DNA of 37,700 bases from a virus (Duplodnaviria; Heunggongvirae; Uroviricota; Caudoviricetes): IMG/VR virus record IMGVR_UViG_2541047736_000004, positions 1-37,700 of that record; one strand, 5' to 3'. Shown one piece after another: positions 1 through 23,596 of the stretch. Under the pieces are notes generated by a model. It saw only the letters and a list, made by a program, of their open reading frames with translations. It did no database searches and was not told where the DNA came from. Position 1 is the stretch's first letter, and each line of letters opens with the position of its first letter. The translations under genes and the position numbers were made by a program.

Positions 1-1248
1 ATGGCACTGAATATTCCATTCAGAAATGCGTACTATCGTTTTGCATCCAGTTACTCATTTCTCTTTTTTATTTCCTGGTCGCTGTGGTGGTCGTTATACG
101 CTATTTGGCTGAAAGGACATCTAGGGTTGACAGGGACGGAATTAGGTACACTTTATTCGGTCAACCAGTTTACCAGCATTCTATTTATGATGTTCTACGG
201 CATCGTTCAGGATAAACTCGGTCTGAAGAAACCGCTCATCTGGTGTATGAGTTTCATCCTGGTCTTGACCGGACCGTTTATGATTTACGTTTATGAACCG
301 TTACTGCAAAGCAATTTTTCTGTAGGTCTAATTCTGGGGGCGCTCTTTTTTGGCCTGGGGTATCTGGCGGGATGCGGTTTGCTTGACAGCTTCACCGAAA
401 AAATGGCGCGAAATTTTCATTTCGAATATGGAACAGCGCGCGCCTGGGGATCTTTTGGCTATGCTATTGGCGCGTTCTTTGCCGGCATATTTTTTAGTAT
501 CAGTCCCCATATCAACTTCTGGTTGGTCTCGCTATTTGGCGCTGTATTTATGATGATCAACATGTGTTTTAAAGATAAGGATCACCAGTGCGTAGCGGCG
601 GATGCGGGAGGGGTAAAAAAAGAGGATTTTATCGCAGTTTTCAAGGATCGAAACTTCTGGGTTTTCGTCATATTTATTGTGGGGACGTGGTCTTTCTATA
701 ACATTTTTGATCAACAACTTTTTCCTGTCTTTTATGCAGGTTTATTCGAATCACACGATGTAGGAACGCGCCTGTATGGTTATCTCAACTCATTCCAGGT
801 GGTACTCGAAGCGCTATGCATGGCGATTATTCCTTTCTTTGTGAATCGGGTAGGGCCAAAAAATGCATTACTTATCGGTGTTGTGATTATGGCGTTGCGT
901 ATCCTTTCCTGCGCGCTGTTCGTTAACCCCTGGATTATTTCATTAGTGAAGCTGTTACATGCTATTGAGGTTCCACTTTGTGTCATATCCGTCTTCAAAT
1001 ACAGCGTGGCAAATTTTGATAAGCGCCTGTCGTCGACGATCTTTCTGATTGGTTTTCAAATTGCCAGTTCGCTTGGGATTGTGCTGCTTTCAACGCCGAC
1101 TGGGATACTCTTTGACCACGCAGGCTACCAGACAGTTTTCTTCGCAATTTCGGGTATTGTCTGCCTGATGTTGCTATTTGGCATTTTCTTCTTGAGTAAA
1201 AAACGCGAGCAAATAGTTATGGAAACGCCTGTACCTTCAGCAATATAG
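1..1248 (+). CDS. cscB: Sucrose:H+ symporter, LacY-family MFS permease (415 aa)
   Basis: Full-length ORF with 12-TM MFS profile; sequence recognised from memory as E. coli CscB (N-terminus MALNIPFRNAYYRFASSYSF). Host gene flanking the prophage. Confidence 0.85.
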   Translation: MALNIPFRNAYYRFASSYSFLFFISWSLWWSLYAIWLKGHLGLTGTELGTLYSVNQFTSILFMMFYGIVQDKLGLKKPLIWCMSFILVLTGPFMIYVYEPLLQSNFSVGLILGALFFGLGYLAGCGLLDSFTEKMARNFHFEYGTARAWGSFGYAIGAFFAGIFFSISPHINFWLVSLFGAVFMMINMCFKDKDHQCVAADAGGVKKEDFIAVFKDRNFWVFVIFIVGTWSFYNIFDQQLFPVFYAGLFESHDVGTRLYGYLNSFQVVLEALCMAIIPFFVNRVGPKNALLIGVVIMALRILSCALFVNPWIISLVKLLHAIEVPLCVISVFKYSVANFDKRLSSTIFLIGFQIASSLGIVLLSTPTGILFDHAGYQTVFFAISGIVCLMLLFGIFFLSKKREQIVMETPVPSAI

Positions 1249-1690
1249 ACGTAAACTTTTTCCGGTTGTTGTCGATAGCTCTATATCCCTCAACCGGAAA
1301 ATAATAATAGTAAAATGCTTAGCCCTGCTAATAATCGCCTAATCCAAACGCCTCATTCATGTTCTGGTACAGTCGCTCAAATGTACTTCAGATGCGCGGT
1401 TCGCTGATTTCCAGGACATTGTCGTCATTCAGTGACCTGTCCCGTGTATCACGGTCCTGCGAATTCATCAAGGAATGCATTGCGGAGTGAAGTATCGAGT
1501 CACGCCATATTTCGCTATCAGGATTCTGTGTGATGGTTACATCGCCCGGCCCAGGGCTGTTTAGTCATCAGCGCTTTCTGACAGTGCTGAGATTTCAACC
1601 TGTTGCAGTAAAAATGAGTAGATATAAGGCAAGTGTGCTGCCAAACCCATCTTTTACGGGGTGAAGGTAGATTTCGTTTGAAGGGTATCT

Positions 1691-1705
1691 GGTGTCCCCT
1701 GCAGA
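1691..1705 (-). other. tRNA 3'-end fragment (candidate att core), identical to last 15 nt of tRNA-Arg(CCU) argW as recalled
   Basis: Plus strand reads TGGTGTCCCCTGCAG, the reverse complement of CTGCAGGGGACACCA (acceptor 3' strand ending ACCA); sequence beyond does not fold as a tRNA, so only the terminal core is present. Confidence 0.45.
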
Positions 1706-1777
1706 CATCTACTTGAAGCAGCAGGGGATTGATTGGAATGGTGTTTTTTAGATGTGAGAAATATTTTACCCGCTATT

Positions 1778-1978
1778 TTACCCATTGGCGCGGCTTAAGA
1801 GCTTATTTTTGAATTCACAATGGTCACGATATAACCATCTTGCTCGACCGTGGATAACTTTGGCTTTTGGCAGGTCGCCGGACTTAATCCGGTCATAGAT
1901 GAAGGTTTTACCAAAGCCAGTATCAGCCATGATGAATTTCAAATCAACCAGTGAATCAGGCTGTAGTTCGTGTTGCAT
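1778..1978 (-). CDS. AlpA-family phage transcriptional regulator / excisionase-like HTH protein (66 aa)
   Basis: Small ORF with the AlpA/Xis-like pattern (FIMADTGFGKTFIYDRIKSGDLPKAKVIHGRARWLYRDHCEF); sits at the prophage end where xis/int are expected. Confidence 0.7.
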   Translation of the reverse strand: MQHELQPDSLVDLKFIMADTGFGKTFIYDRIKSGDLPKAKVIHGRARWLYRDHCEFKNKLLSRANG

Positions 1979-1997
1979 GAGTGCTATCTCCGAATAG

Positions 1998-2013
1998 GGA
2001 ATCGAACCTGCAA
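1998..2013 (-). other. tRNA T-arm fragment (16 nt identical to the variable/T-arm segment of the same tRNA-Arg-like gene)
   Basis: Plus strand GGAATCGAACCTGCAA is the reverse complement of TTGCAGGTTCGATTCC; no pairing partner for a T-stem follows, so it is a fragment. Confidence 0.4.
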
Positions 2014-2018
2014 ATCAG

Positions 2019-2041
2019 GCAATAAAAAACCGCCATCAGGC
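2019..2041 (-). terminator. Intrinsic terminator between the 266-aa gene and the AlpA-like gene
   Basis: Minus-strand hairpin CCGCC-tgat-GGCGG followed by TTTTTTATTG. Confidence 0.5.
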
Positions 2042-2260
2042 GGCTTGGTGTTCTTTCAGTTCTTCAATTCGAATATTGGTTACGTCTGCATGTGCTATCT
2101 GCGCCCACAGCATCCAGTGGTCATAGCAGTCGTTGATGTTCTCTGCTTCGATAACTCTGTTGAATGGTTCTCCATTCCATTCACCTGTTACTCGGAAGTG
2201 CATTTATCATCTCCATAAAACAAAACTCGCCGTAGCGAGTTCAGATAAAAGAAATCCGCA

Positions 2261-3061
2261 TTAAGCGGCGTCGGTGAATTCAAATAAAAAACCGGCTTGC
2301 GCCGGCTCTCTCATCTTTCTGTCTACCCATGCTGATATCGATGGCGGGTGCACCTTTTCAATAGCAGCGCGAAGTACAGCTGTGCGTGCCAGTTTGTCGG
2401 TAATCTCAGGAAATCGCTTCTCTGTCTTCGGTACGTTAACAGCAACATTAGTAGAATCCGCACTGGCGAACGGATACATACCAAGAACTCTCACGTCGAG
2501 CATTCGAAGACCATGAATTTTCACTTTCAAATTACGATTGATATAAAGCTCAGTGAAAACTTCATCCATTCTCTGTTCCCACCATTTAGAGCGTATGTGC
2601 CTGTGTGGTCCGCAGCATCCAATCGCCACCCATTCAAATTTGCTAGAAAGGCGTAAAAGACGTTCAATTGATTCGTCGGTATGCCAGACCGGAACCGCTT
2701 TTGATTTTAGCCAATCAGGAACCAACTCAATCTGCTCGTCGTTTTCTGCCTCTGTCCCTTCGATAACGTCAGGTATAAGAAACCATTCAATTCTGCTGAA
2801 CCACTTCCCAACAAAGTCGTAGAATTTTGCTCGTCTCTTACTCCAGTCTACCGGAGTGCCTTTCTTTAATGCTTTCATCCAGTCGCTAAAAGCGCCGTTA
2901 TCAAGGCGTATATCACAAGGGAACATGGCAATCTTTTTCATCTGCTCTGGTCTGGCAAATGAAACAAAAGCCCCACCATCACGGTAAAGGGCTTTAATCA
3001 GCATATCTGTAGGGGCATGCTCATCCCCCCATATTGGGCTGCCGTGAAAGTGGATGGTCAT
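2261..3061 (-). CDS. Hypothetical protein (266 aa); weak resemblance to tRNA-guanine transglycosylase (TGT/DpdA-like) catalytic motif
   Basis: Long ORF with AT-rich upstream region; contains LDNGAF resembling the TGT catalytic motif TDSGGFQ, plus a second Asp-containing segment (ADSTNV). Assignment is motif-level only. Confidence 0.3.
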   Translation of the reverse strand: MTIHFHGSPIWGDEHAPTDMLIKALYRDGGAFVSFARPEQMKKIAMFPCDIRLDNGAFSDWMKALKKGTPVDWSKRRAKFYDFVGKWFSRIEWFLIPDVIEGTEAENDEQIELVPDWLKSKAVPVWHTDESIERLLRLSSKFEWVAIGCCGPHRHIRSKWWEQRMDEVFTELYINRNLKVKIHGLRMLDVRVLGMYPFASADSTNVAVNVPKTEKRFPEITDKLARTAVLRAAIEKVHPPSISAWVDRKMREPAQAGFLFEFTDAA

Positions 3062-3225
3062 ATTATCCCCATATAAAAGAAATCCCCGCGAGTGCGAGGA
3101 TTGTTATTCATTGCCGATATTTACATTTATTTCGAATATCTTTACTGGGTAATCGCCAAAGTCATATGTTTTTTATTCTGTTTTATAAGCACTACTAAGT
3201 ACTGCTTATTACAAATAAGAAAAGG

Positions 3226-3257
3226 CTGAAAAAATATTTAAGGCCACAACTGTGGCC
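3226..3257 (-). terminator. Intrinsic terminator of the LprI-like gene
   Basis: Minus-strand hairpin GGCCAC-agtt-GTGGCC followed by TTAAATATTTTTTCAG, immediately after the stop at 3268. Confidence 0.6.
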
Positions 3258-3267
3258 CTAAATTTAC

Positions 3268-3966
3268 TTACGGCACTGCGTTAATCAGATTACAAATACC
3301 TCTTTTGGCAGGGTCTGAATTCAACTTCTGGAAATTGGCGTTCAACATAGCAGTGTGTAAGTGATTCTCAACCTCAAAGAATAGGTCGATTTTGCCCTCT
3401 TTGGCTGCATGTTTCTTCCAAACATTCACTTGGTCATCAGCAATACGACTGGCGCAAGTGAACAAGAACGAACTGCCTCTAGGAATGGATGTCGTGCTGT
3501 AATACTCACCATCTACTTCTACATATTTAGCTCGGAATGACTCTAAGGTTAGCTTATTGCCGTTCTTGACCGACTTAGCTTCTGCCTTACTTGTTTCTTC
3601 CTGCTCTTTAGAATGTTTCTGCGCCGACGTGGGTATGTCATTGGCCGCTGTTACGCTGACTGAACTCCCCAAACCTTTGAGGCCATTAATTTGGATAAGA
3701 TAAGCCAGCTCCAGAGCCTTATTATCAGTGAGTTTTCCACGCATATTTACCCACTGACGTTGAACCATTTTTAGGGTGTCTGCGTTCTCTGGGTTTCCTT
3801 TGAGGGCACTAGAATAGGCAGAGCTAAGCTGTTCGTCTAATTTTGACAGACGTTCGTTATCGCAGATTTTATGTTCGATTGCTGTCGAAGCCTTTTGGCA
3901 GTCAAAGCTGGCTGCAAATGCACCCGGCGATGCCACTAACAATGATGCCAGTAGGATATTTTTCAT
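3268..3966 (-). CDS. Secreted DUF1311 / lysozyme-inhibitor LprI-like protein (232 aa from MKNILL start)
   Basis: Signal peptide MKNILLASLLVASPGAFA followed by FDCQKA...ICDN...LDEQL, typical of the LprI N-terminal domain; GGAG RBS before the internal ATG at 3966; own terminator and AT-rich upstream region. Confidence 0.6.
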   Translation of the reverse strand: MKNILLASLLVASPGAFAASFDCQKASTAIEHKICDNERLSKLDEQLSSAYSSALKGNPENADTLKMVQRQWVNMRGKLTDNKALELAYLIQINGLKGLGSSVSVTAANDIPTSAQKHSKEQEETSKAEAKSVKNGNKLTLESFRAKYVEVDGEYYSTTSIPRGSSFLFTCASRIADDQVNVWKKHAAKEGKIDLFFEVENHLHTAMLNANFQKLNSDPAKRGICNLINAVP

Positions 3967-4096
3967 ATTCACTCCATAAATACAAAAGCGCATTACTATA
4001 GCACTTAACCGATCGCTTATCTCGCCCGTTCGTCATTCTTATCTAACCAGAACATGCGACTGCCACAGCACATGTCGAGGATTGCTGCATGTCCAG

Positions 4097-4645
4097 TCAC
4101 TGGTTGCCTCCTTTGCGAAGCTGGGCGGCTAACTCATCACATATGTGCGTCAAAGAGCAAAGTTTGATTGATGGATGTTCGCGCATCATCTCCACCCCCT
4201 GCGCCCGTACTTCAGCCAGGAAAGCATCGGTGGCTGGCATATTTCCTGTTGCCTTCATGGCCTCCAAAATAACCAGAACACCATCTCTCCCAATCTCCTC
4301 GCAGATAACCTCGGTGCTGTCGCCAACAACATCGCAGAATTCCTGAACTGCTTTACGAGCCAGCTCATTCTCCGCCGCCAGCGCCGAAAACTTCTCGTGT
4401 GCCAACTTAACAGCTGCATCAGCCTGCTTAATTGACTCAGTCGCTTTCTGGTGGTCTTCGGCCAGCCCTGCTAAATCAGCCTCCAGTTCGGCTAGGCGTT
4501 CATTTAATGCATCTCGTTCATCCAGTAGAGCCAGCACAACCTGAGGTGTGACTTTCATACGAAATGCCAGCAATTTTTGAGGTGTTGCTACTGTTTCAAT
4601 TGCTACTGCCGCCTCACGCAGTGCCTGAGAGTTAATTTCGCTCAC
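4097..4645 (-). CDS. Ead/Ea22-like coiled-coil phage protein (182 aa)
   Basis: N-terminus MSEINSQALREAA... and coiled-coil composition resemble the Ea22-like family of lambdoid early-left regions; start overlaps the TraR-like stop (ATGA). Confidence 0.55.
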   Translation of the reverse strand: MSEINSQALREAAVAIETVATPQKLLAFRMKVTPQVVLALLDERDALNERLAELEADLAGLAEDHQKATESIKQADAAVKLAHEKFSALAAENELARKAVQEFCDVVGDSTEVICEEIGRDGVLVILEAMKATGNMPATDAFLAEVRAQGVEMMREHPSIKLCSLTHICDELAAQLRKGGNQ

Positions 4646-4863
4646 TTCGAACCTCTCTGTTTACTGATAAGTTCCAGATCCTCCTGGCAACTTGCACAAG
4701 TCCGACAACCCTGAACGGCCAGGCGTCTTCGTTCATCTAGCGGATCGCCACACTCACAACAATGAGTGGCAGATATAGCCTGGTGGTTCAGGCGGCGCAT
4801 TTTTATTGCTGTGTTGCGCTGTAATTCTTCAATTTCTGATGCTGAATCAATGATGTCTGCCAT
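4642..4863 (-). CDS. TraR/DksA-family C4 zinc-finger protein (73 aa)
   Basis: Two Cys pairs (CCEC ... CRTCASC) at the C-terminus; size and position typical of phage TraR-like proteins. Confidence 0.7.
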   Translation of the reverse strand: MADIIDSASEIEELQRNTAIKMRRLNHQAISATHCCECGDPLDERRRLAVQGCRTCASCQEDLELISKQRGSK

Positions 4864-4911
4864 CTTTCATTAATCCCTGAATTGTTGGTTAATACGCTTG
4901 AGGGTGAATGC

Positions 4912-4939
4912 GAATAAGAAAAAAGGAGCCTGTAGCTCC
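4912..4939 (-). terminator. Intrinsic terminator downstream of the DGQHR gene
   Basis: Minus-strand hairpin GGAGC-tacag-GCTCC followed by TTTTTTCTTATTCG. Confidence 0.55.
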
Positions 4940-5016
4940 ATGATGATTTTGTTTTTCATGCTCACCGTTCCTTAAAGACGCCGTACAGCATGCTGATATG
5001 AGACAATGTTGATTCA

Positions 5017-6081
5017 TTAAGTTGTTTCCAGACTTCCTTTGGTAAAAGCTTGTATCAGTCTGTTTGCTGCTGCTTTCTGCGCTGCCACATTGGCAATAAC
5101 CGATAGTTTTTCCTGGCTGGCTTTCGTGCAGATCCCCGCCCAGTTATCCATCAGAAAAAAATCCTCTCTTTCTGCAGAGCTGGTAGTTGCACAGAGTTTT
5201 TCGATCATAGAAGTTATTTCTGCGATGGAATGATTAACCATCATCTGTTGAACCGCAAAACCGAAAGCGTTAATCATTACTCCATGGAACTGAATATAAT
5301 CGCGCTTGTACGTAGCGTGGTGTACACCATGTCGGATTGAGTCAATCTGAGTTAGTGTAATCCATGCCTCCCAGACAGATTCTATATATCCCATTTCAAG
5401 TTGTTGATTGCCGTTCCTAGCAAACTTTGACGTTGCATCAGTGAGTGCCTTGAAACTCACCCACATATTACTTTTTAATGGCACTACGTTGTGTTCAAAA
5501 TCGGTTATATCGGCAAATACAGTATGTTGGGTCAGGAAGGATATCATTCCCTGAGCAATATCATCCCGGCCGTTATACGCCATATTGATGGTCGCTGATG
5601 GCTTAGAAACGTTGTTATTTATGTCCGAAAAGAACTGCTGCCGGGTTTTTAGCGGCAGATTCATTGTAAGCATCATGGGAACCATGAGCGTTGATGGGGA
5701 ACTTCGGCAAAATATCTCAATGCCAGCTGCACGATGTTGGCCATCAAAAAGTTTTATTTCGGCGTCGAGGGGAATTCTGGCTATACCAACATTTGTGTTG
5801 CCAAACGGTACAAATTCTATATTCGAATCACAGTTACCTACGAGAGGGGGAATGATAAAAGGCTCATTTCTTGAGTCTGCGTTAGTGAGATAATTTAAAA
5901 ATTTTCGTACTCGATTTGGATTAATTTCTCGCTGAGAGCGTTCCAGTGTATGGCCGTAATTATCTGAAGCGAGGAAACGAGCCAGCGATCTTCCTGGTAT
6001 GGTAAGGAAGAGTGTAACAGTACCACCCTGTACACCTTGCGATGCCGGAAATTCGAATGAATGATTACCAACCTGACTCAT
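5017..6081 (-). CDS. DGQHR-domain protein (DndB/DpdB-like, 354 aa)
   Basis: Exact DGQHR motif in KLFDGQHRAAGIEIF; size fits DndB-like proteins; start codon overlaps the stop of the upstream small ORF. Confidence 0.7.
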   Translation of the reverse strand: MSQVGNHSFEFPASQGVQGGTVTLFLTIPGRSLARFLASDNYGHTLERSQREINPNRVRKFLNYLTNADSRNEPFIIPPLVGNCDSNIEFVPFGNTNVGIARIPLDAEIKLFDGQHRAAGIEIFCRSSPSTLMVPMMLTMNLPLKTRQQFFSDINNNVSKPSATINMAYNGRDDIAQGMISFLTQHTVFADITDFEHNVVPLKSNMWVSFKALTDATSKFARNGNQQLEMGYIESVWEAWITLTQIDSIRHGVHHATYKRDYIQFHGVMINAFGFAVQQMMVNHSIAEITSMIEKLCATTSSAEREDFFLMDNWAGICTKASQEKLSVIANVAAQKAAANRLIQAFTKGSLETT

Positions 6082-6236
6082 ATATCCTCCTGTTTATTAT
6101 TTATCTTCTCAGCCAGCCGCTGTGCTTTCAGTGGATTTCTGATAACAGAAAGGCCGGGAAATACCCAGCCTCGCTTTGTAATGGAGTAGACGAAAGTGAT
6201 CGCGCCTACCCGGATATTATCGTGAGGATGCGTCAT
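6078..6236 (-). CDS. Small lambda orf60a-like protein (52 aa), translationally coupled to exo and the DGQHR gene
   Basis: ORF not in the supplied track (under 60 aa); translated by hand as [52 protein letters not shown]; ATG overlaps the exo stop (ATGA) and its stop overlaps the DGQHR start. Confidence 0.45.
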
Positions 6237-6913
6237 CGCCATTGCTCCCCAAATACAAAACCAATTTCAGCCAGTGCCTCGTCCATTTTTTCGATGAACT
6301 CCGGCACCATCTCGTCAAAACTCGCCATGTACTTTTCATCCCGCTCAACCACGACATAATGCAGTCCTTCACGCTTCATACGCGGGTCATAGTTGGCAAA
6401 GTACCAGGCATCTTTTCGTGTCACCCACATGCTGTACTGCACCTGGGCCATGTAAGCCGACTTTATGGCCTCGAAACCACCGAGCCGGAACTTCATGAAA
6501 TCCCGGGAGGTAAACGGGCATTTCAGCTCAAGGCCATTGCCGTTACTGCATAAACCATCGGGAGAGCAGGCGGTGCGCATACTTTCGTCGCGATAGATGA
6601 TCGGGGATTCAGTAACATTCACGCCGGAAGTGAATTCAAACAGGGTTCTGGCGTCGTTCTCGTACTGTTTTCCCCAGGCCAGCGCCTTAGCATTAACTTC
6701 CGGAGCCACACCGGTGCAAACCTCAGCCAGCAGGGTGTGGAAGTAGGACATTTTCATGTCAGGCCACTTCTTTCCTGAGCGGGGCTTTGCTATCACGTTG
6801 TGAACTTCTGAAGCGGTGATGACGCCGAGCCGTAATTTGTGCCATGCATCATCCCCCTGTTCGACAGCTCTCACGTCGATCCCGGTACGCTGCAGGATAA
6901 TGTCCGGTGTCAT
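6233..6913 (-). CDS. exo: Lambda exonuclease (Red-alpha), 226 aa
   Basis: Near-identical to lambda Exo as recalled; overlaps bet stop. Confidence 0.95.
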
Positions 6914-8748: not shown

Positions 8749-10174
8749 TAATGCCAGTCAGTTAAGCAACTGACTGGCTCTTTTTCGGGGCTGTGGGGTA
8801 TTTCCAGGGCCTCTCCTTTACCACTCTCGGGAAGGCCCTTTCCCTTCTTGTCGGTAATTTCACAAGTTGTCCCATACTTGCAAGATCGCGCATCAGCTCC
8901 GGTATACGTCCCGGTGAAGCGCCCTGCAATGTCATCAGCATTCTCATCACCATTCCGCATGATTCTGAGAAACTCAGTTGATTCGGCCAGTAACCTTTCA
9001 GATGTTCCGCCATTTTAATCATCTGATATCTCACCAGATTATAAGCCAGTAAGACACCCCACAGCTCTTGCTCCACAAGCTCCGGCTTTTTACTTCTCAG
9101 CGTCAGCCTGCTCCGTTGCATCGTCTGTTTTATCTCCCTGTATCCCAGTTCGATTTCCCAGCGATGACTGTACAGATCCCCCATTTCTCCTCCGGGGAAG
9201 CGCATGGCGTCCGTCATCGACGTCAGCAGATGGCAGACTTTTCCTTTGCGCGTCACGGTCAGCAGGCGGGCAGTCACTTCATTTCCCAGTCCCGGCCACT
9301 TTTTTCGTGCCTGCGGGCTGGTTTTCAGCTTCACCAGATGATCGCCTTTACCCAGTTTTCTGATCTCTTCATATTGCGCTCCCTTTCTGAGAGGTATCAT
9401 CCAGTGGCGGTGTTCTCCCGCCAGGCTCCAGGCATTTAACAGTCCCAGTGAGTAATAACCTTTATCCATTAACGTCAGAGTGTTATCGCCGGTTTGTTCT
9501 ATAAGTTGCTCAGCAAGCTCATTTTCGCTGTTCTTCATCGTGCCGAAGGCTGCAGCCGTCAGCAGATGGCTGGTCAGTTCCATCTGGCAGACCATTTTGA
9601 CCTGCGGGTAGAGCGCCGGGTTCCCGGCATGTGTCTGGCGGGGGAAGGCTGCATCGTTCTCTGGTGTATCCGGTGTGCGCCAGAACACACCATCGATGGC
9701 CAGCAGGGTCAGGCCGCACCAGTGCGGATGCGGCGTGGCGTTATGCCAGAGCTGCGCTGTTTTCGTGAACACGCGGCGGACAGCCTCACTTCCCAGGCGC
9801 TGGCGGGCCTGAATAACGGCACTGGGGGCAACGAAGGGGCGATTGCCCGGCAGCATGATGTCCAGGCGATTCACAATCTGGTGAAGAGGTTCTTTACGCT
9901 CAAGCGCCATGCCAACAATACACCAGACCATCATTTCGAGGGGAAGACGGCGCTTGCGTAGCGTTACAGTACCTGATTCGGCAAGGCAACGAGAGATGAG
10001 TTCGGGGTCGAGGTAATCCCCCAGAGAAGTCAGTGGGTTACGCAGAGAATCGTAACGGGATACCAGATCAAGAGCCTGTCCAATGTGCATAAAAAAATCC
10101 GGAAACAAGTGAGCGTTTCCGGATTCTTACACAGCCACTGGATCGGTCAACTGATCCTTAACTGATCGGCATTA
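8749..10174 (-). mobile_element. Insertion sequence IS4, complete (1426 bp)
   Basis: Terminal inverted repeats TAATGCCAGTCAG... and ...CTGATCGGCATTA; encodes the IS4 transposase; flanked by a 12-bp duplication. Confidence 0.95.
8762..10090 (-). CDS. insG: IS4 transposase (442 aa from MHIGQALDL start)
   Basis: Recognised as the IS4 transposase (DDE family); the supplied ORF carries a 6-codon upstream extension. Confidence 0.9.
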
Positions 10175-18838: not shown

Positions 18839-19008
18839 TGGCTACACCGCTTATTCGTGTCATGAACGGACACATCTACAGAGTATCAAATCGTCGTAAG
18901 CGTAAGCCTGAGCTGAAGCCATCCGAAATACCAACACTGCTCGGATATACCGCTAGCCTGGTTGATAAAAAATGGTTGCGACTGGCAGCAAGGAGGAATC
19001 ATGGCTGA
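18838..19008 (+). CDS. ninE: NinE-family small protein (56 aa)
   Basis: ORF under the track threshold, translated by hand ([56 protein letters not shown]); overlaps ninB stop and ybcO start. Confidence 0.55.
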   Translation: MATPLIRVMNGHIYRVSNRRKRKPELKPSEIPTLLGYTASLVDKKWLRLAARRNHG

Positions 19009-19291
19009 TTTGAGAAAAGCAGCGCGTGGTCGGGAATGCCAGGTAAGAATCCCTGGCGTATGTAATGGCAATTCTGAAACGTCTGTACTGGCACATATCC
19101 GGCTGGCTGGATTGTGCGGTACCGGTATCAAACCGCCAGACCTGATTGCCACCATTGCATGTTCTGCCTGCCACGACGAAATCGACCGCCGCACACATTT
19201 TGTCGATGCTGCATATGCAAAAGAATGCGCGCTGGAAGGTATGGCGAGAACACAGGTTATCTGGCTGAAAGAGGGGGTTATTAAGGCGTGA
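19001..19291 (+). CDS. ybcO: YbcO-like DUF1364 protein (96 aa from [14 protein letters not shown])
   Basis: Matches DLP12 YbcO as recalled; the supplied ORF has a 13-codon upstream extension. Confidence 0.8.
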
Positions 19292-19650
19292 ATACCTACA
19301 GTATCACATTACCCTGGCCTCCGAGCAATAATCGCTATTACCGCCATAATCGCGGGCGCACGCACGTCAGCGCAGAGGGGCAGGCATACCGCGATAACGT
19401 CGCCCGAATCATTAAAAACGCAATGCTGGATATCGGCCTGGCTATGCCTGTGAAAATCCGCATTGAGTGCCACATGCCGGATCGCCGTCGCCGTGACCTG
19501 GATAATCTGCAAAAAGCCGCTTTTGACGCACTCACTAAAGCAGGTTTCTGGCTGGATGATGCTCAGGTCGTTGATTACCGCGTTGTGAAGATGCCTGTTA
19601 CCAAAGGTGGGAGGCTGGAACTGACCATCACCGAAATGGGGAATGAATGA
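19288..19650 (+). CDS. rusA: RusA Holliday-junction resolvase (120 aa)
   Basis: Matches E. coli RusA as recalled; GTG start overlapping ybcO stop. Confidence 0.9.
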
Positions 19651-19787
19651 TGTTTGAGTTTAATATGGCAGAACTTCTTCGCCACCGCTGGGGGCGTCTG
19701 CGCTTATATCGTTTCCCCGGTTCTGTTTTGACCGATTACCGAATACTGAAGAATTACGCCAAAACCCTGACAGGAGCAGGAGTATGA
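19647..19787 (+). CDS. ylcG: YlcG-like small protein (46 aa)
   Basis: ORF under the track threshold, translated by hand ([46 protein letters not shown]); overlaps rusA stop. Confidence 0.65.
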
Positions 19788-19872
19788 AGTCAGAGATAAC
19801 AATCAACTAATACTGTTTTGTTGATTTTTGCTTGTAATTGGCGTTCTGGTCTGATTTTTGTGGAGTAAGTTG

Positions 19873-20256
19873 ATGCGTGATATTCAGATGGTTCTTGAGC
19901 GTTGGGGAGCGTGGGCGGCTAATAATCATGAAGATGTGACCTGGTCGTCCATTGCCGCCGGTTTTAAGGGATTAATTACTTCAAAAGTAAAATCTCGCCC
20001 GCAATGTTGTGACGATGACGCGATGATCATTTGCGGGTGCATGGCCCGTCTGAAAAAGAACAACAGTGATTTGCACGATTTATTAGTAGATTATTATGTA
20101 GTCGGTATGACATTCATGTCACTGGCAGGTAAGCATTGCTGCTCTGATGGTTATATCGGGAAAAGGTTACAGAAGGCTGAGGGTATAATTGAAGGGATGT
20201 TAATGGCATTAGATATCCGGTTAGAGATGGATATCGTTGTTAATAACTCTAATTAA
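19873..20256 (+). CDS. quuD: Late-gene antiterminator Q, phage 82 / DLP12 QuuD type (127 aa from [10 protein letters not shown])
   Basis: Matches DLP12 QuuD as recalled; the supplied ORF starts 5 codons upstream. Confidence 0.85.
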
Positions 20257-20444: not shown

Positions 20445-21527
20445 TTAGAACTGGTAAACCATACCTACAGCAACGATATCATCGGTAGCAACGCCAGATG
20501 CTTTCGTGAAATCGCTCTTATCAATCAGGTTGATTTTGTAATCAACAAAAGTGGACATATTTTTGTTGAAGTAATAGGTTGCACCTACATCAATATATTC
20601 AACCAGGTCCTGATCACCCCACGCACCCAAGTCTTTTCCTTTAGATTGCAGGTAAGCAACGGACGGACGCAGACCGAAGTCGAACTGATATTGTGCAACT
20701 ACTTCGAAGTTTTGTGCTTTGTTGGCAATATGGTTATTACCAAAAACAGTCATGTTCTGGGTTTCAGAATAGGTGGTAGCCAGATAGATGTTGTTCGCAT
20801 CATATTTCAGACCAGCTGCCCATACTTCAGCATTTTGACCAGATGCATTCAGGCTGTTGTTACCGTAGATAACCTGATTATTAGTGCGGTCAGATTTAGC
20901 ATAGGTTGCACCTACACCGAATCCTTCATACTCATAAGTAGTGGAGAAACCGAAACCATCACCATTAGCTTCAGTTACGTCAGTGCGGTCATTTTTACCC
21001 TGATACTGAGCAGCAAAGTTCAGACCATCAACCAGACCAAAGAAGTCGTTGTTACGATAAGTTGCAACACCAGTGGTGCGACCAGTCATGAACACATCTG
21101 TTTGGGTCCAGGTATCGCCACCGAATTCTGGCAGAACGTCAGTCCACGCACCGATGTCGTATGCTACACCGTAGTTACGGCCGTAATCGATTGAGCCGTA
21201 GTCACCGAATTTCAGGCCTGCAAATGCAAGACGGGTTTTGTCTTTGGAGGAACCTTGAGATTCAGCGCGGTTGCCTTTGAATTCATATTCCCACTGACCG
21301 AAACCAGTCAGTTGATCGTTGATTTGGGTTTCACCTTTGAAGCCAAGACGGGCATAAGTAGTATCACCATCATCTGCATCATTAGAGGAGAAGTAGTGCT
21401 TAGCATTAACTTTCCCGTACAGATCCAGCTTGTTACTGTCTTTATTATAAATTTCAGCTGCCTGAGCAGACATCGCCATCAGTACTGATGCAGCTACAGC
21501 AGAAATTGCCACTGTTAATTTTTTCAT
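20445..21527 (-). CDS. nmpC: Outer-membrane porin of the OmpC/OmpF family (360 aa), prophage moron
   Basis: Signal peptide plus typical porin beta-barrel sequence ending in F; recognised as NmpC of DLP12-type prophages; antisense to the late operon. Confidence 0.9.
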
Positions 21528-21955
21528 CGTGAGCCCTTTTTTTTGAACTATTATTAAAAAATGATGTCACTGCGCGATAAATATTCATCTAATCAATGTG
21601 ATTATTTCAAGATGTAAGTTTTGGTTTCTCGTTTGATTTGTGAAGTAGATCTCTATTTTTATCTGAACTTTTTTCTATCGAATCCTATTCATAGCTCTTG
21701 GCTGAATAAAAATAAATCTATTAGCCAATTTATATTAACGGCTGTTATTTATAAGTGCTCTATAATTTGAAGGTTCAATTTAAATCGGCTAAAAATAACA
21801 CTGGAAATTATTTGTTGGTTATTTGTTGAGATTTGCTTATGTATTTGTAGTGGTGTTTTCAATACTCGGTAGCATTCTCGCAAATATCATTTAGTGGTTT
21901 ACGTACGTAAAAAATTGGTTATGCTGTTAAGAGTGGTTACTTCGTCACACAGCTT

Positions 21956-21988
21956 AAACCCGCCGTCGAGCGGGTTTTTCCATTTTTT
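21956..21988 (+). terminator. Intrinsic terminator upstream of the lysis cassette (tR'-like candidate)
   Basis: Plus-strand hairpin AAACCCGC-cgtcga-GCGGGTTT followed by TTCCATTTTTTG. Confidence 0.5.
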
Positions 21989-22100
21989 GAGTCTCGATAT
22001 TAGCTGATAACCCAATACCTGAGTTATTCACTGACTCCGAGTCTGTTACGTTTCGTAGTATTCCCTCAATTTACACCCGCTTTGTCTGCGAGGTGGGGTT

Positions 22101-22316
22101 ATGAAATCCATGGATAAGTTAACAACGGGTGTCGCCTATGGCACCTCAGCAGGTAGTGCCGGGTACTGGTTTTTACAGCTGCTAGATAAAGTCACGCCCT
22201 CACAGTGGGCGGCAATTGGAGTGCTGGGTAGCCTGGTATTTGGCCTGCTGACGTACCTGACAAACCTTTATTTCAAGATTAAAGAAGATAAGCGTAAGGC
22301 TGCGAGAGGTGAATAA
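22101..22316 (+). CDS. essD: Holin, phage 21 S-type class II (71 aa)
   Basis: Two TM segments; matches DLP12 EssD / S21 as recalled. Confidence 0.9.
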
Positions 22317-23302: not shown

Positions 23303-23596
23303 TTATTGTGAGCAATACACCCGCGCTTCCAGCGGAGTATAAATGCCTAAAGTAATAAAACCGAGCAATCCATTTACGAATGTTTGCTGGGTTTCTGTTT
23401 TAACAACATTTTCTGCGCCGCCACAAATTTTGGCTGCATCAACAGTTTTCTCCTGTCCAATTCCCGAAACGAAGAAATGATGGGTGATGGTTTCCTTTGG
23501 TGTTACTGCTGTCGGTTTGTTTCCAACAGTAAACGTCTGTTGAGCACATCCTGTAATAAGCATTGCCAGAGCGGCAGAAAACAACATTTTTTTCAT
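23303..23596 (-). CDS. bor: Bor lipoprotein (97 aa from MKKMLF)
   Basis: Near-identical to lambda Bor as recalled, with lipobox ITGC. Confidence 0.9.
   Translation of the reverse strand: MKKMLFSAALAMLITGCAQQTFTVGNKPTAVTPKETITHHFFVSGIGQEKTVDAAKICGGAENVVKTETQQTFVNGLLGFITLGIYTPLEARVYCSQ

Follow-up and report, generated by a model that had tools for sequence, protein, structure and literature searches.

A probable barrel-only DpdA without a zinc site, encoded by a stand-alone cassette in a lambdoid prophage

Identification of a phage DpdA

The dpdA gene described here lies at the left end of a prophage contained in a 37,700-nucleotide (nt) stretch of Caudoviricetes DNA (IMG/VR record IMGVR_UViG_2541047736_000004, positions 1 to 37,700; hereafter, the window). 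Sequence comparison shows that its product is a member of the already described phage DpdA family of DNA 7-deazaguanine transglycosylases, within the "DpdA-only" clade of gamma-proteobacterial phages. By homology, the protein is probably a minimal, zinc-less DpdA, reduced to the barrel, that performs base exchange on DNA. The gene appears to form a stand-alone cassette, and a pairing with a DGQHR gene further upstream is not supported.

The open reading frame (ORF) is located on the minus strand (2261–3061, ATG at 3061, stop at 2261) and encodes 266 residues, with a GGGGA ribosome-binding site, read from the sequence, at 3070–3066. Together with the 206-nt intergenic region upstream, this coding sequence makes up the interval 2261–3267, for which an earlier examination of the DNA without database searches (the sequence-only reading) had proposed an enzyme resembling tRNA-guanine transglycosylase (TGT), based on the motifs LDNGAF and ADSTNV. 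Both motifs are present, at residues 53–58 and 201–206 respectively, and their conservation among 66 homologues (see below) indicates more than a chance resemblance. The proposed location at the left end of a prophage is also correct: cscB, a sucrose permease gene of the host, occupies the first part of the window (1–1248), and the first prophage gene encodes a TorI-type excisionase (1778–1978, minus strand).

The protein matches PHROG_887, "queuine tRNA-ribosyltransferase", over residues 1–265 (E=1.3e-102). A tblastn search of phage genomes returned HK106 gp29 (98.5% identity over all 266 residues), the DpdA proteins of Pectobacterium phage PEAT2 (64%), Salmonella phage 7-11 (58%, E=1e-84) and Pantoea phage MED16 (43%, E=3e-58), and homologues in P22-like phages, e.g. 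BTP1 and SPN3UB (~35%). The genes of HK106, PEAT2, 7-11 and BTP1 carry the RefSeq product name "queuine tRNA-ribosyltransferase". The Supplementary Data of Hutinet et al. 2019 (PMC6884629) list HK106 (YP_007151699), 7-11, PEAT2, SEN1, SPN3UB and BTP1 as DpdA-only phages, which encode DpdA and lack the preQ0/archaeosine pathway; in the same study, a cluster of "singleton" DpdAs is specific to gamma-proteobacterial phages, and phage 7-11 is among the singletons. Profile-profile alignment of the family with the validated DpdA1 of phage CAjan using hhalign gave a probability of 95.9% (E=5.9e-9) with both aspartate motifs aligned, and alignment of the family profile with the single E. coli TGT sequence gave 0.3%. 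A PADLOC scan of the 266-residue protein gave no match. Family, fold and catalytic-motif evidence, taken together, bear out the proposal of a DpdA-type transglycosylase of the TGT superfamily that lacks the zinc motif.

The classification is already published, and the gene is mis-annotated or un-annotated in bacterial genomes. Matches to dpdA were found in 82 complete E. coli genomes, including that of the laboratory strain E. coli W, and the RefSeq product is "hypothetical protein" in every E. coli record among the matches listed. The sequence-only reading had regarded the arrangement as new to lambdoid phages; in fact, HK106 is itself lambdoid, its gene (98.5% identity) occupies the same position, and this gene has been catalogued as a DpdA since 2019. 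A literature search on DpdA in temperate phages and lysogens found no study of the HK106-type clade, and two papers, on V. cholerae WASA and on an E. coli HS phage, mention DpdA for Queuovirinae only. Two records labelled "DH5alpha" (NZ_CP026085.1 and NZ_CM135829.1; 4.83 Mb) carry dpdA at 99.1% identity, like E. coli W. A genome of 4.83 Mb is larger than expected for a K-12 derivative, and these labels could be wrong.

Predicted structure and active site

An AlphaFold2 model was built from an alignment of the 66 homologues (identity down to ~44%), with a mean predicted local distance difference test (pLDDT) score of 93.5 and a predicted template modelling (pTM) score of 0.89. The model contains eight alternating strands and helices that form a TGT-like (beta/alpha)8 barrel, the TIM-barrel fold expected of a transglycosylase. 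It stops after the barrel and two additional helices, with residues 256–266 disordered. In structural comparisons, the closest match is a DNA enzyme, bacterial DpdA (PDB code 7UI4), with 212 residues aligned, although this match is only slightly above those to unrelated barrels (PdxJ 13.7). A comparison with the predicted viral structures of BFVD gave 25 matches at E<=1e-3; all those that carry a name are phage "queuine tRNA-ribosyltransferase" proteins.

Ser34, Asp54, Asn55, Ala57, Asp98, His127, His183, Asp202, Arg226 and Glu235 are invariant in the 66 homologues, and Gly56, Phe58 and Ser203 are nearly so. The active sites of TIM-barrel enzymes sit at the C-terminal ends of the strands, and Ser34, Asp54, Asp98, His127, His183 and Asp202 are located at or just past the C-terminal ends of predicted strands 2, 3, 4, 5, 7 and 8, respectively. 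The hhalign alignment with CAjan DpdA1 pairs LDNGAFS with LDSGAFS, VPVWH with LPCFH, KIHG with KLHA, and FASADSTNV with YSCDSSSW, such that Asp54 and Asp202 coincide with the aspartates of LDSGAFS and CDSSSW. In bacterial DpdA, Asp95 is the general acid/base and Asp256 the nucleophile, and both are essential (PMC10164549). From the motif order and the CAjan alignment, Asp54 is predicted to be the general acid/base and Asp202 the nucleophile.

CAjan/9g DpdA1 shares the two aspartate motifs and the VPxxH and K(I/L)H motifs with the window protein, and CAjan loses dPreQ0 from its DNA when dpdA is deleted (Hutinet et al. 2019, PMC6884629). It differs in its length (306 residues), its low sequence identity (~18%) and its setting, as it belongs to virulent Queuovirinae, has folE/queD/queE/queC and a preQ0 transporter gene encoded alongside it, and replaces 25–32% of G.

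The sequence-only reading had noted the lack of a CxCxxC...H zinc motif, and this observation holds: the motif is absent from the 266-residue protein, and a conserved zinc site is absent across the 66 homologues. The sole cysteine cluster, Cys149 and Cys150, is conserved in only 37 and 48 of the 66 homologues, respectively. Since these cysteines are poorly conserved and the protein ends shortly past the barrel, the structural zinc site of TGT and bacterial DpdA is absent. The bacterial enzyme (Salmonella Montevideo, 7UI4) is much larger, with 413 residues, a structural zinc site and four insertions, compared with the zinc-less 266 residues of the window protein. It also strictly requires the ATPase DpdB and ATP (PMC10164549) and is encoded in a dpdA-K island with restriction genes. 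DpdB, a ParB-fold ATPase with a DGQQR motif, is encoded with DpdA and present in 92% of genomes with dpdA. None of these bacterial hallmarks was found in the window prophage, which contains no DpdB and no dpdC-K, and whose DpdA has neither the zinc site nor the insertions.

Genomic neighbors of DpdA and precursor supply

Sixty DpdA-like loci from different bacterial species were screened by single-query tblastn. A gene of the VUT/YhhQ (preQ0-transporter) family is directly adjacent to dpdA in 12 of these loci, and the same adjacency is found in phages PEAT2, PS25B.1, Tbat1_6 and the Phleasolo-like phages. A DNA methyltransferase gene adjoins dpdA in several of the 60 loci, and preQ0 biosynthesis genes were found in none of them. 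Additionally, a 76%-identical DpdA homologue carries an in-frame C-terminal fusion to a Dam DNA N6-adenine methyltransferase (460 residues) and is preceded by a Vut_1/YhhQ-family gene with an overlap of 4 nt. This arrangement is found in three independent assemblies, in the early region of a P22/lambda-like prophage (4540–6383 in one), and would be a compact module for importing a precursor and making two DNA modifications. Transporter and methyltransferase genes as neighbors suggest that a 7-deazapurine precursor is imported and that the enzyme acts on DNA.

The window itself contains no homologues of folE, queC, queD, queE, YhhQ or Dam. E. coli makes preQ0 via FolE/QueD/QueE/QueC. The DpdA2 enzymes of phages nt-1 and VH7D, acting alone in E. 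coli, insert preQ0/preQ1 in a manner dependent on host queD (PMC10516641), and the use of host precursors has been proposed for DpdA-only phages (Hutinet et al. 2019, PMC6884629). The use of host-made preQ0, as suggested by the sequence-only reading, fits both this proposal and the lack of preQ0-pathway genes in the window.

Cassette structure and transcription

Nucleotide homology between the window and HK106 spans 2016–3108 and then breaks; homology with the prophage of E. coli W, which has the same cscB junction, spans 2201–3162 and then breaks. The segment common to all three consists of dpdA and two flanking stem-loops, at 3102–3081 and 2242–2223. Because the recombination breakpoints and stem-loops flank dpdA alone, the gene behaves as a mobile cassette. 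The 5' part of the cassette is a conserved leader (3062–3108, minus strand) that shares homology with HK106 and E. coli W and comprises the hairpin 3102–3081, a following T-run and the ribosome-binding site. The 3' edge is marked by the second terminator-like hairpin (2223–2242, minus strand), identified in a hairpin scan ~20 nt past the dpdA stop, near where the E. coli W homology begins at 2201. Based on these sequence comparisons, dpdA appears to be a self-contained cassette in the leftward early block, at the end nearer the excisionase gene and in the same slot as in HK106.

The window gene is effectively the HK106 gp29 allele, as judged by sequence, in a prophage integrated next to cscB. 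In both genomes, it is located in the leftward early region, upstream of an excisionase gene and a 55-residue ORF of the lambda "lambdap35" type (2036–2203, minus strand), which is 96% identical to HK106 gp28. This small ORF accompanies dpdA in HK106, and E. coli W has a different ORF at this place; it is probably part of the context, with no functional tie to dpdA implied. HK106 differs from the window prophage in having a lambda-type int beside xis and DUF4752 and HK620-like ORFs as upstream neighbors, and it has neither the LprI-family gene nor the DGQHR gene. The literature searched contained no data on modification of HK106 DNA.

The upstream genes in HK106 and E. coli W are different, but each ends ~42 nt before dpdA on the same strand. 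This spacing to an upstream early gene indicates that dpdA is read within the leftward early transcript. The sequence-only reading had credited the gene with an AT-rich upstream region of its own. The composition is as described (G+C content 33% in the 206-nt spacer, compared with 49.6% for the whole window); however, the spacer holds two terminator-like hairpins, one of which (3263–3236) closes the LprI-family gene and the other of which is the cassette stem-loop 3102–3081, and it shows no match to the sigma-70 consensus on the coding strand. An AT-rich spacer of this kind is not by itself evidence for an independent dpdA promoter.

Terminator-like hairpins are frequent in this region, with 13 found in window positions 1200–6300 compared with 4.3 ± 1.9 in shuffled sequences. 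Most are on the minus strand at cassette boundaries (2046–2027, 2242–2223, 3102–3081, 3263–3236 and 4939–4925), and these boundary hairpins coincide with the mosaic breakpoints relative to HK106 and the E. coli W prophage. The AT-rich spacer also contains a 23-nt near-palindrome at 3186–3208 (minus strand TAAGCAGTACTTAGTAGTGCTTA), which could be a protein-binding site; it falls outside the segment common to HK106 and E. coli W.

Relationship to the DGQHR gene

The DGQHR gene is located at 5017–6081 on the minus strand, 1,955 bp upstream of dpdA. Its product is a genuine DGQHR/DndB-like protein by profile comparison, matching Pfam DndB (E=3.8e-46), TIGR03187 DGQHR (188.8 bits, compared with a cutoff of 58.85) and the PADLOC DndB model (4.3e-37). 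It differs from DndB proper in scoring below the DndB equivalog cutoff (106.9 vs 328 bits) and in having no dnd genes nearby; neither dndCDE nor ssp genes were found in the window. This gene thus has no companions of the dnd, ssp or dpd type.

The sequence-only reading had proposed that the DpdA-like and DGQHR proteins form a split two-component system, in which the latter would act as a DpdB-type ATPase or targeting subunit. There are grounds for such a pairing, since bacterial DpdA strictly needs a ParB-fold ATPase, DpdB, that is a relative of DndB (PMC10164549), the window neighbor has a bona fide DGQHR domain, and dpdA and the DGQHR gene share both a strand and an early region. Among 5,426 complete E. 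coli genomes, dpdA is present in 82 and a near-identical (at least 99%) DGQHR gene in 284; a search with an artificial query consisting of dpdA, 3 kb of random filler and the DGQHR gene found the two within ~2 kb of each other in exactly six, four with the window arrangement and two with a second one.

The overall distribution, however, argues strongly against a pair. Either gene is present in 359 E. coli genomes, and both are present anywhere in only seven, compared with ~4.3 expected if they were independent; the six linked cases represent two arrangements only. None of the 60 cross-species DpdA loci has a DGQHR homologue within 10 kb. Each gene also occurs without the other: DGQHR is missing from the dpdA carriers HK106 and E. 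coli W, and DpdA from Salmonella phage SPN1S and Klebsiella phage ST101-KPC2phi6.3, which carry DGQHR (62–65% identical). In SPN1S, the 65%-identical DGQHR homologue is followed by a DNA methyltransferase gene. Locally, the two window genes are separated by LprI-family, Ea22-like and TraR-like genes and by three terminator-like hairpins, and the recombination breakpoints flank dpdA alone. The DGQHR gene instead overlaps, by 4 nt, the DUF1317 gene downstream of exo, and a DUF1317 gene is annotated beside it in every E. coli record among the matches listed. The motif and profile matches also speak against a DpdB, as the protein carries DGQHR, not the DGQQR of DpdB, and scores with DndB models. 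Moreover, phage DpdA2 enzymes are active alone in E. coli (PMC10516641), so the DpdB requirement of bacterial DpdA is not general for phage enzymes. The DGQHR protein was therefore rejected as a partner of dpdA on the basis of distribution, and a two-component system is highly improbable.

Proposed activity and alternative functions

If the window protein acts as its homology suggests, dpdA would be part of the leftward early transcript in the lytic cycle, and the enzyme would catalyze a TGT-type double-displacement (covalent) base exchange on double-stranded DNA. Asp202 would attack C1', displacing guanine, with Asp54 as the general acid/base, and a free 7-deazaguanine base from the host Que pathway, either preQ0 or the amide ADG (7-amido-7-deazaguanine), would be installed. 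The DGQHR protein would not be needed. Small amounts of the corresponding nucleosides, dADG or dPreQ0, are expected, at ~0.02–0.13% of G, or a few to tens of sites per 40–50 kb genome, and bulk replacement of guanine would not be expected. This low level is anticipated because the only two analyzed relatives show similar values: dADG in phage 7-11 DNA is present at 50 per 10^6 nt, or 0.02% of G (Hutinet et al. 2019, PMC6884629), and in phage MED16 DNA at ~0.13% of G, where it gave no detectable protection against the restriction enzymes tried (PMC8306585). Like the window prophage, neither of these phages encodes a preQ0 pathway, and their DpdA proteins are BLAST-detectable homologues; they differ in being virulent, with unrelated genomes, and the link between gene and modification is correlative. 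The comparisons above show the family, the fold, the conserved catalytic motifs, the cassette structure, the independence from DGQHR and the recurrent linkage to YhhQ/VUT transporter and DNA methyltransferase genes; we infer the substrate base, the DNA target (phage or host), the timing of expression and the benefit.

Several observations weigh against this interpretation. Scans of the protein against Pfam and NCBIfam returned no family (for Pfam at E<=1, TGT included), and searches of PDB sequences with either the single protein or the 66-sequence profile gave chance matches only. A Foldseek search of the PDB was uninformative, returning generic TIM barrels with 7UI4 at rank 46. The equivalence of Asp54 and Asp202 to Asp95 and Asp256 of bacterial DpdA is predicted from alignment. 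The genetic and biochemical evidence for base insertion comes from DpdA proteins outside this exact clade, and the dADG in 7-11 and MED16 is very low and only correlated with the gene. These relatives carry dADG, not dPreQ0, and no amide-forming enzyme is evident in the window. Given that bacterial DpdA needs an ATPase partner, the enzymes of this clade may also depend on a host or phage partner. Finally, an IS4-family element upstream (see below) may be polar on gam, bet, exo, the DGQHR gene, dpdA and xis, impairing their expression.

The RefSeq product name on the HK106, PEAT2, 7-11 and BTP1 genes, along with a fold and motifs of the TGT superfamily, would suit a tRNA-guanine transglycosylase that remodels host or phage tRNA during infection, yet this function is very unlikely. 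Compared with the bacterial and archaeal tRNA enzymes (TGT, arcTGT; PF01702), the window protein has no sequence match to the family up to E=1, and it is confined to the barrel, with 266 residues rather than the 375 of E. coli TGT. It has neither a conserved zinc site or zinc subdomain nor the C-terminal/PUA domains and tRNA-binding elements, and its substrate is presumed to be DNA. The closest structural match is a DNA enzyme, relatives are fused or adjacent to DNA methyltransferases, phages with close relatives have modified DNA, and the window contains no tRNA genes. A TGT-fold enzyme acting on neither DNA nor tRNA, whether Cap10-like (attaching deazaguanine to a protein or nucleotide) or involved in base salvage, is equally hard to reconcile with the data and has little probability. 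The window has no CD-NTase gene or QueC-like Cap9 gene, the profile similarity goes to CAjan DpdA1, all named viral structural neighbors are of the DpdA type, and the genes that recur beside dpdA encode DNA methyltransferases and precursor transporters.

Less remote, though still unlikely, is the same chemistry directed at the chromosome of the lysogen, with dpdA as a moron, expressed from the prophage, that marks host DNA for self-marking, superinfection-related functions or evasion of host systems, and not to protect virion DNA. The hairpin-bracketed cassette moves as a unit between prophage backbones, as is typical of morons, its accessory neighbors (an LprI-family secreted protein, Iss and an OmpC-like porin) are of the lysogenic-conversion type, and marking of host DNA by the bacterial Dpd system is comparably sparse (PMC10516641). 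Against this, the 206-nt upstream region has no sigma-70-like promoter, the ~42-nt gap to the preceding early gene in HK106 and E. coli W indicates read-through from an early promoter, the virulent phages 7-11, PEAT2 and MED16 carry close homologues, and the window lacks partner genes of a restriction type. A somewhat more doubtful reading is that the barrel-only DpdA of lambdoid and P22-like temperate phages is a site-specific "epigenetic" writer that uses host precursors only to place a few 7-deazaguanines, possibly the QueC intermediate ADG, at defined sites of phage or lysogen DNA, instead of providing bulk anti-restriction; in a weaker form of this idea, the DGQHR protein would boost or retarget the enzyme in a DpdB-like manner in the rare prophages with both genes. 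If true, such a writer would serve a function other than classical restriction evasion, e.g. evading or triggering defense systems, or marking DNA for packaging or replication. Base exchange on DNA by a minimal, barrel-only DpdA remains the probable activity.

Other features of the prophage

The annotation of an identical prophage shows lambdoid phage genes and morons only. The integrase is located away from the excisionase end, a KplE1-like layout, and a tRNA scan of the window found no tRNA genes. The LprI-family (lysozyme-inhibitor-like) gene at 3268–3993 has an N-terminal signal-like sequence and its own strong terminator hairpin (3263–3236); it forms an insertion that separates dpdA from the Ea22-like gene. 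Numerous E. coli genomes, many from avian or poultry isolates, have the LprI-Ea22-TraR block without dpdA, and the LprI-family gene looks like a lysogenic-conversion moron. Near the lysis cassette are genes for an OmpC-like porin (~20445–21527) and for the serum-survival lipoprotein Iss (iss, ~23303–23596), whose positions were transferred from a related prophage record (19007–20089 and 21865–22158) with an offset for the IS4 insertion.

This 1,426-bp IS4-family insertion, at 8749–10174 with a 12-bp target duplication, contains a transposase ORF of 448 residues (8762–10108, minus strand). It lies in the leftward early region, between a kil-like gene and the immunity region, and is missing from the otherwise 99–100% identical prophage of strain 2024CK-00188.

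Implications

Excluding a partnership between DpdA and the DGQHR protein avoids a false call of a new two-gene system, and it leaves the phage DGQHR/DndB-like gene, found in 284 E. coli genomes beside DUF1317 next to exo, as a gene to be considered separately. The main practical value of the assignment is a correction of annotation: 82 E. coli genomes carry a "hypothetical protein" that belongs to a described DNA-hypermodification family, for which Pfam, NCBIfam and PADLOC hold no model that detects this DpdA clade. HK106 and the E. coli W prophage provide near-identical copies in readily available systems. A question raised in the literature of 2019–2023, concerning the role of the enzyme, the base inserted and the low density of modification in "DpdA-only" phages, thereby becomes testable.

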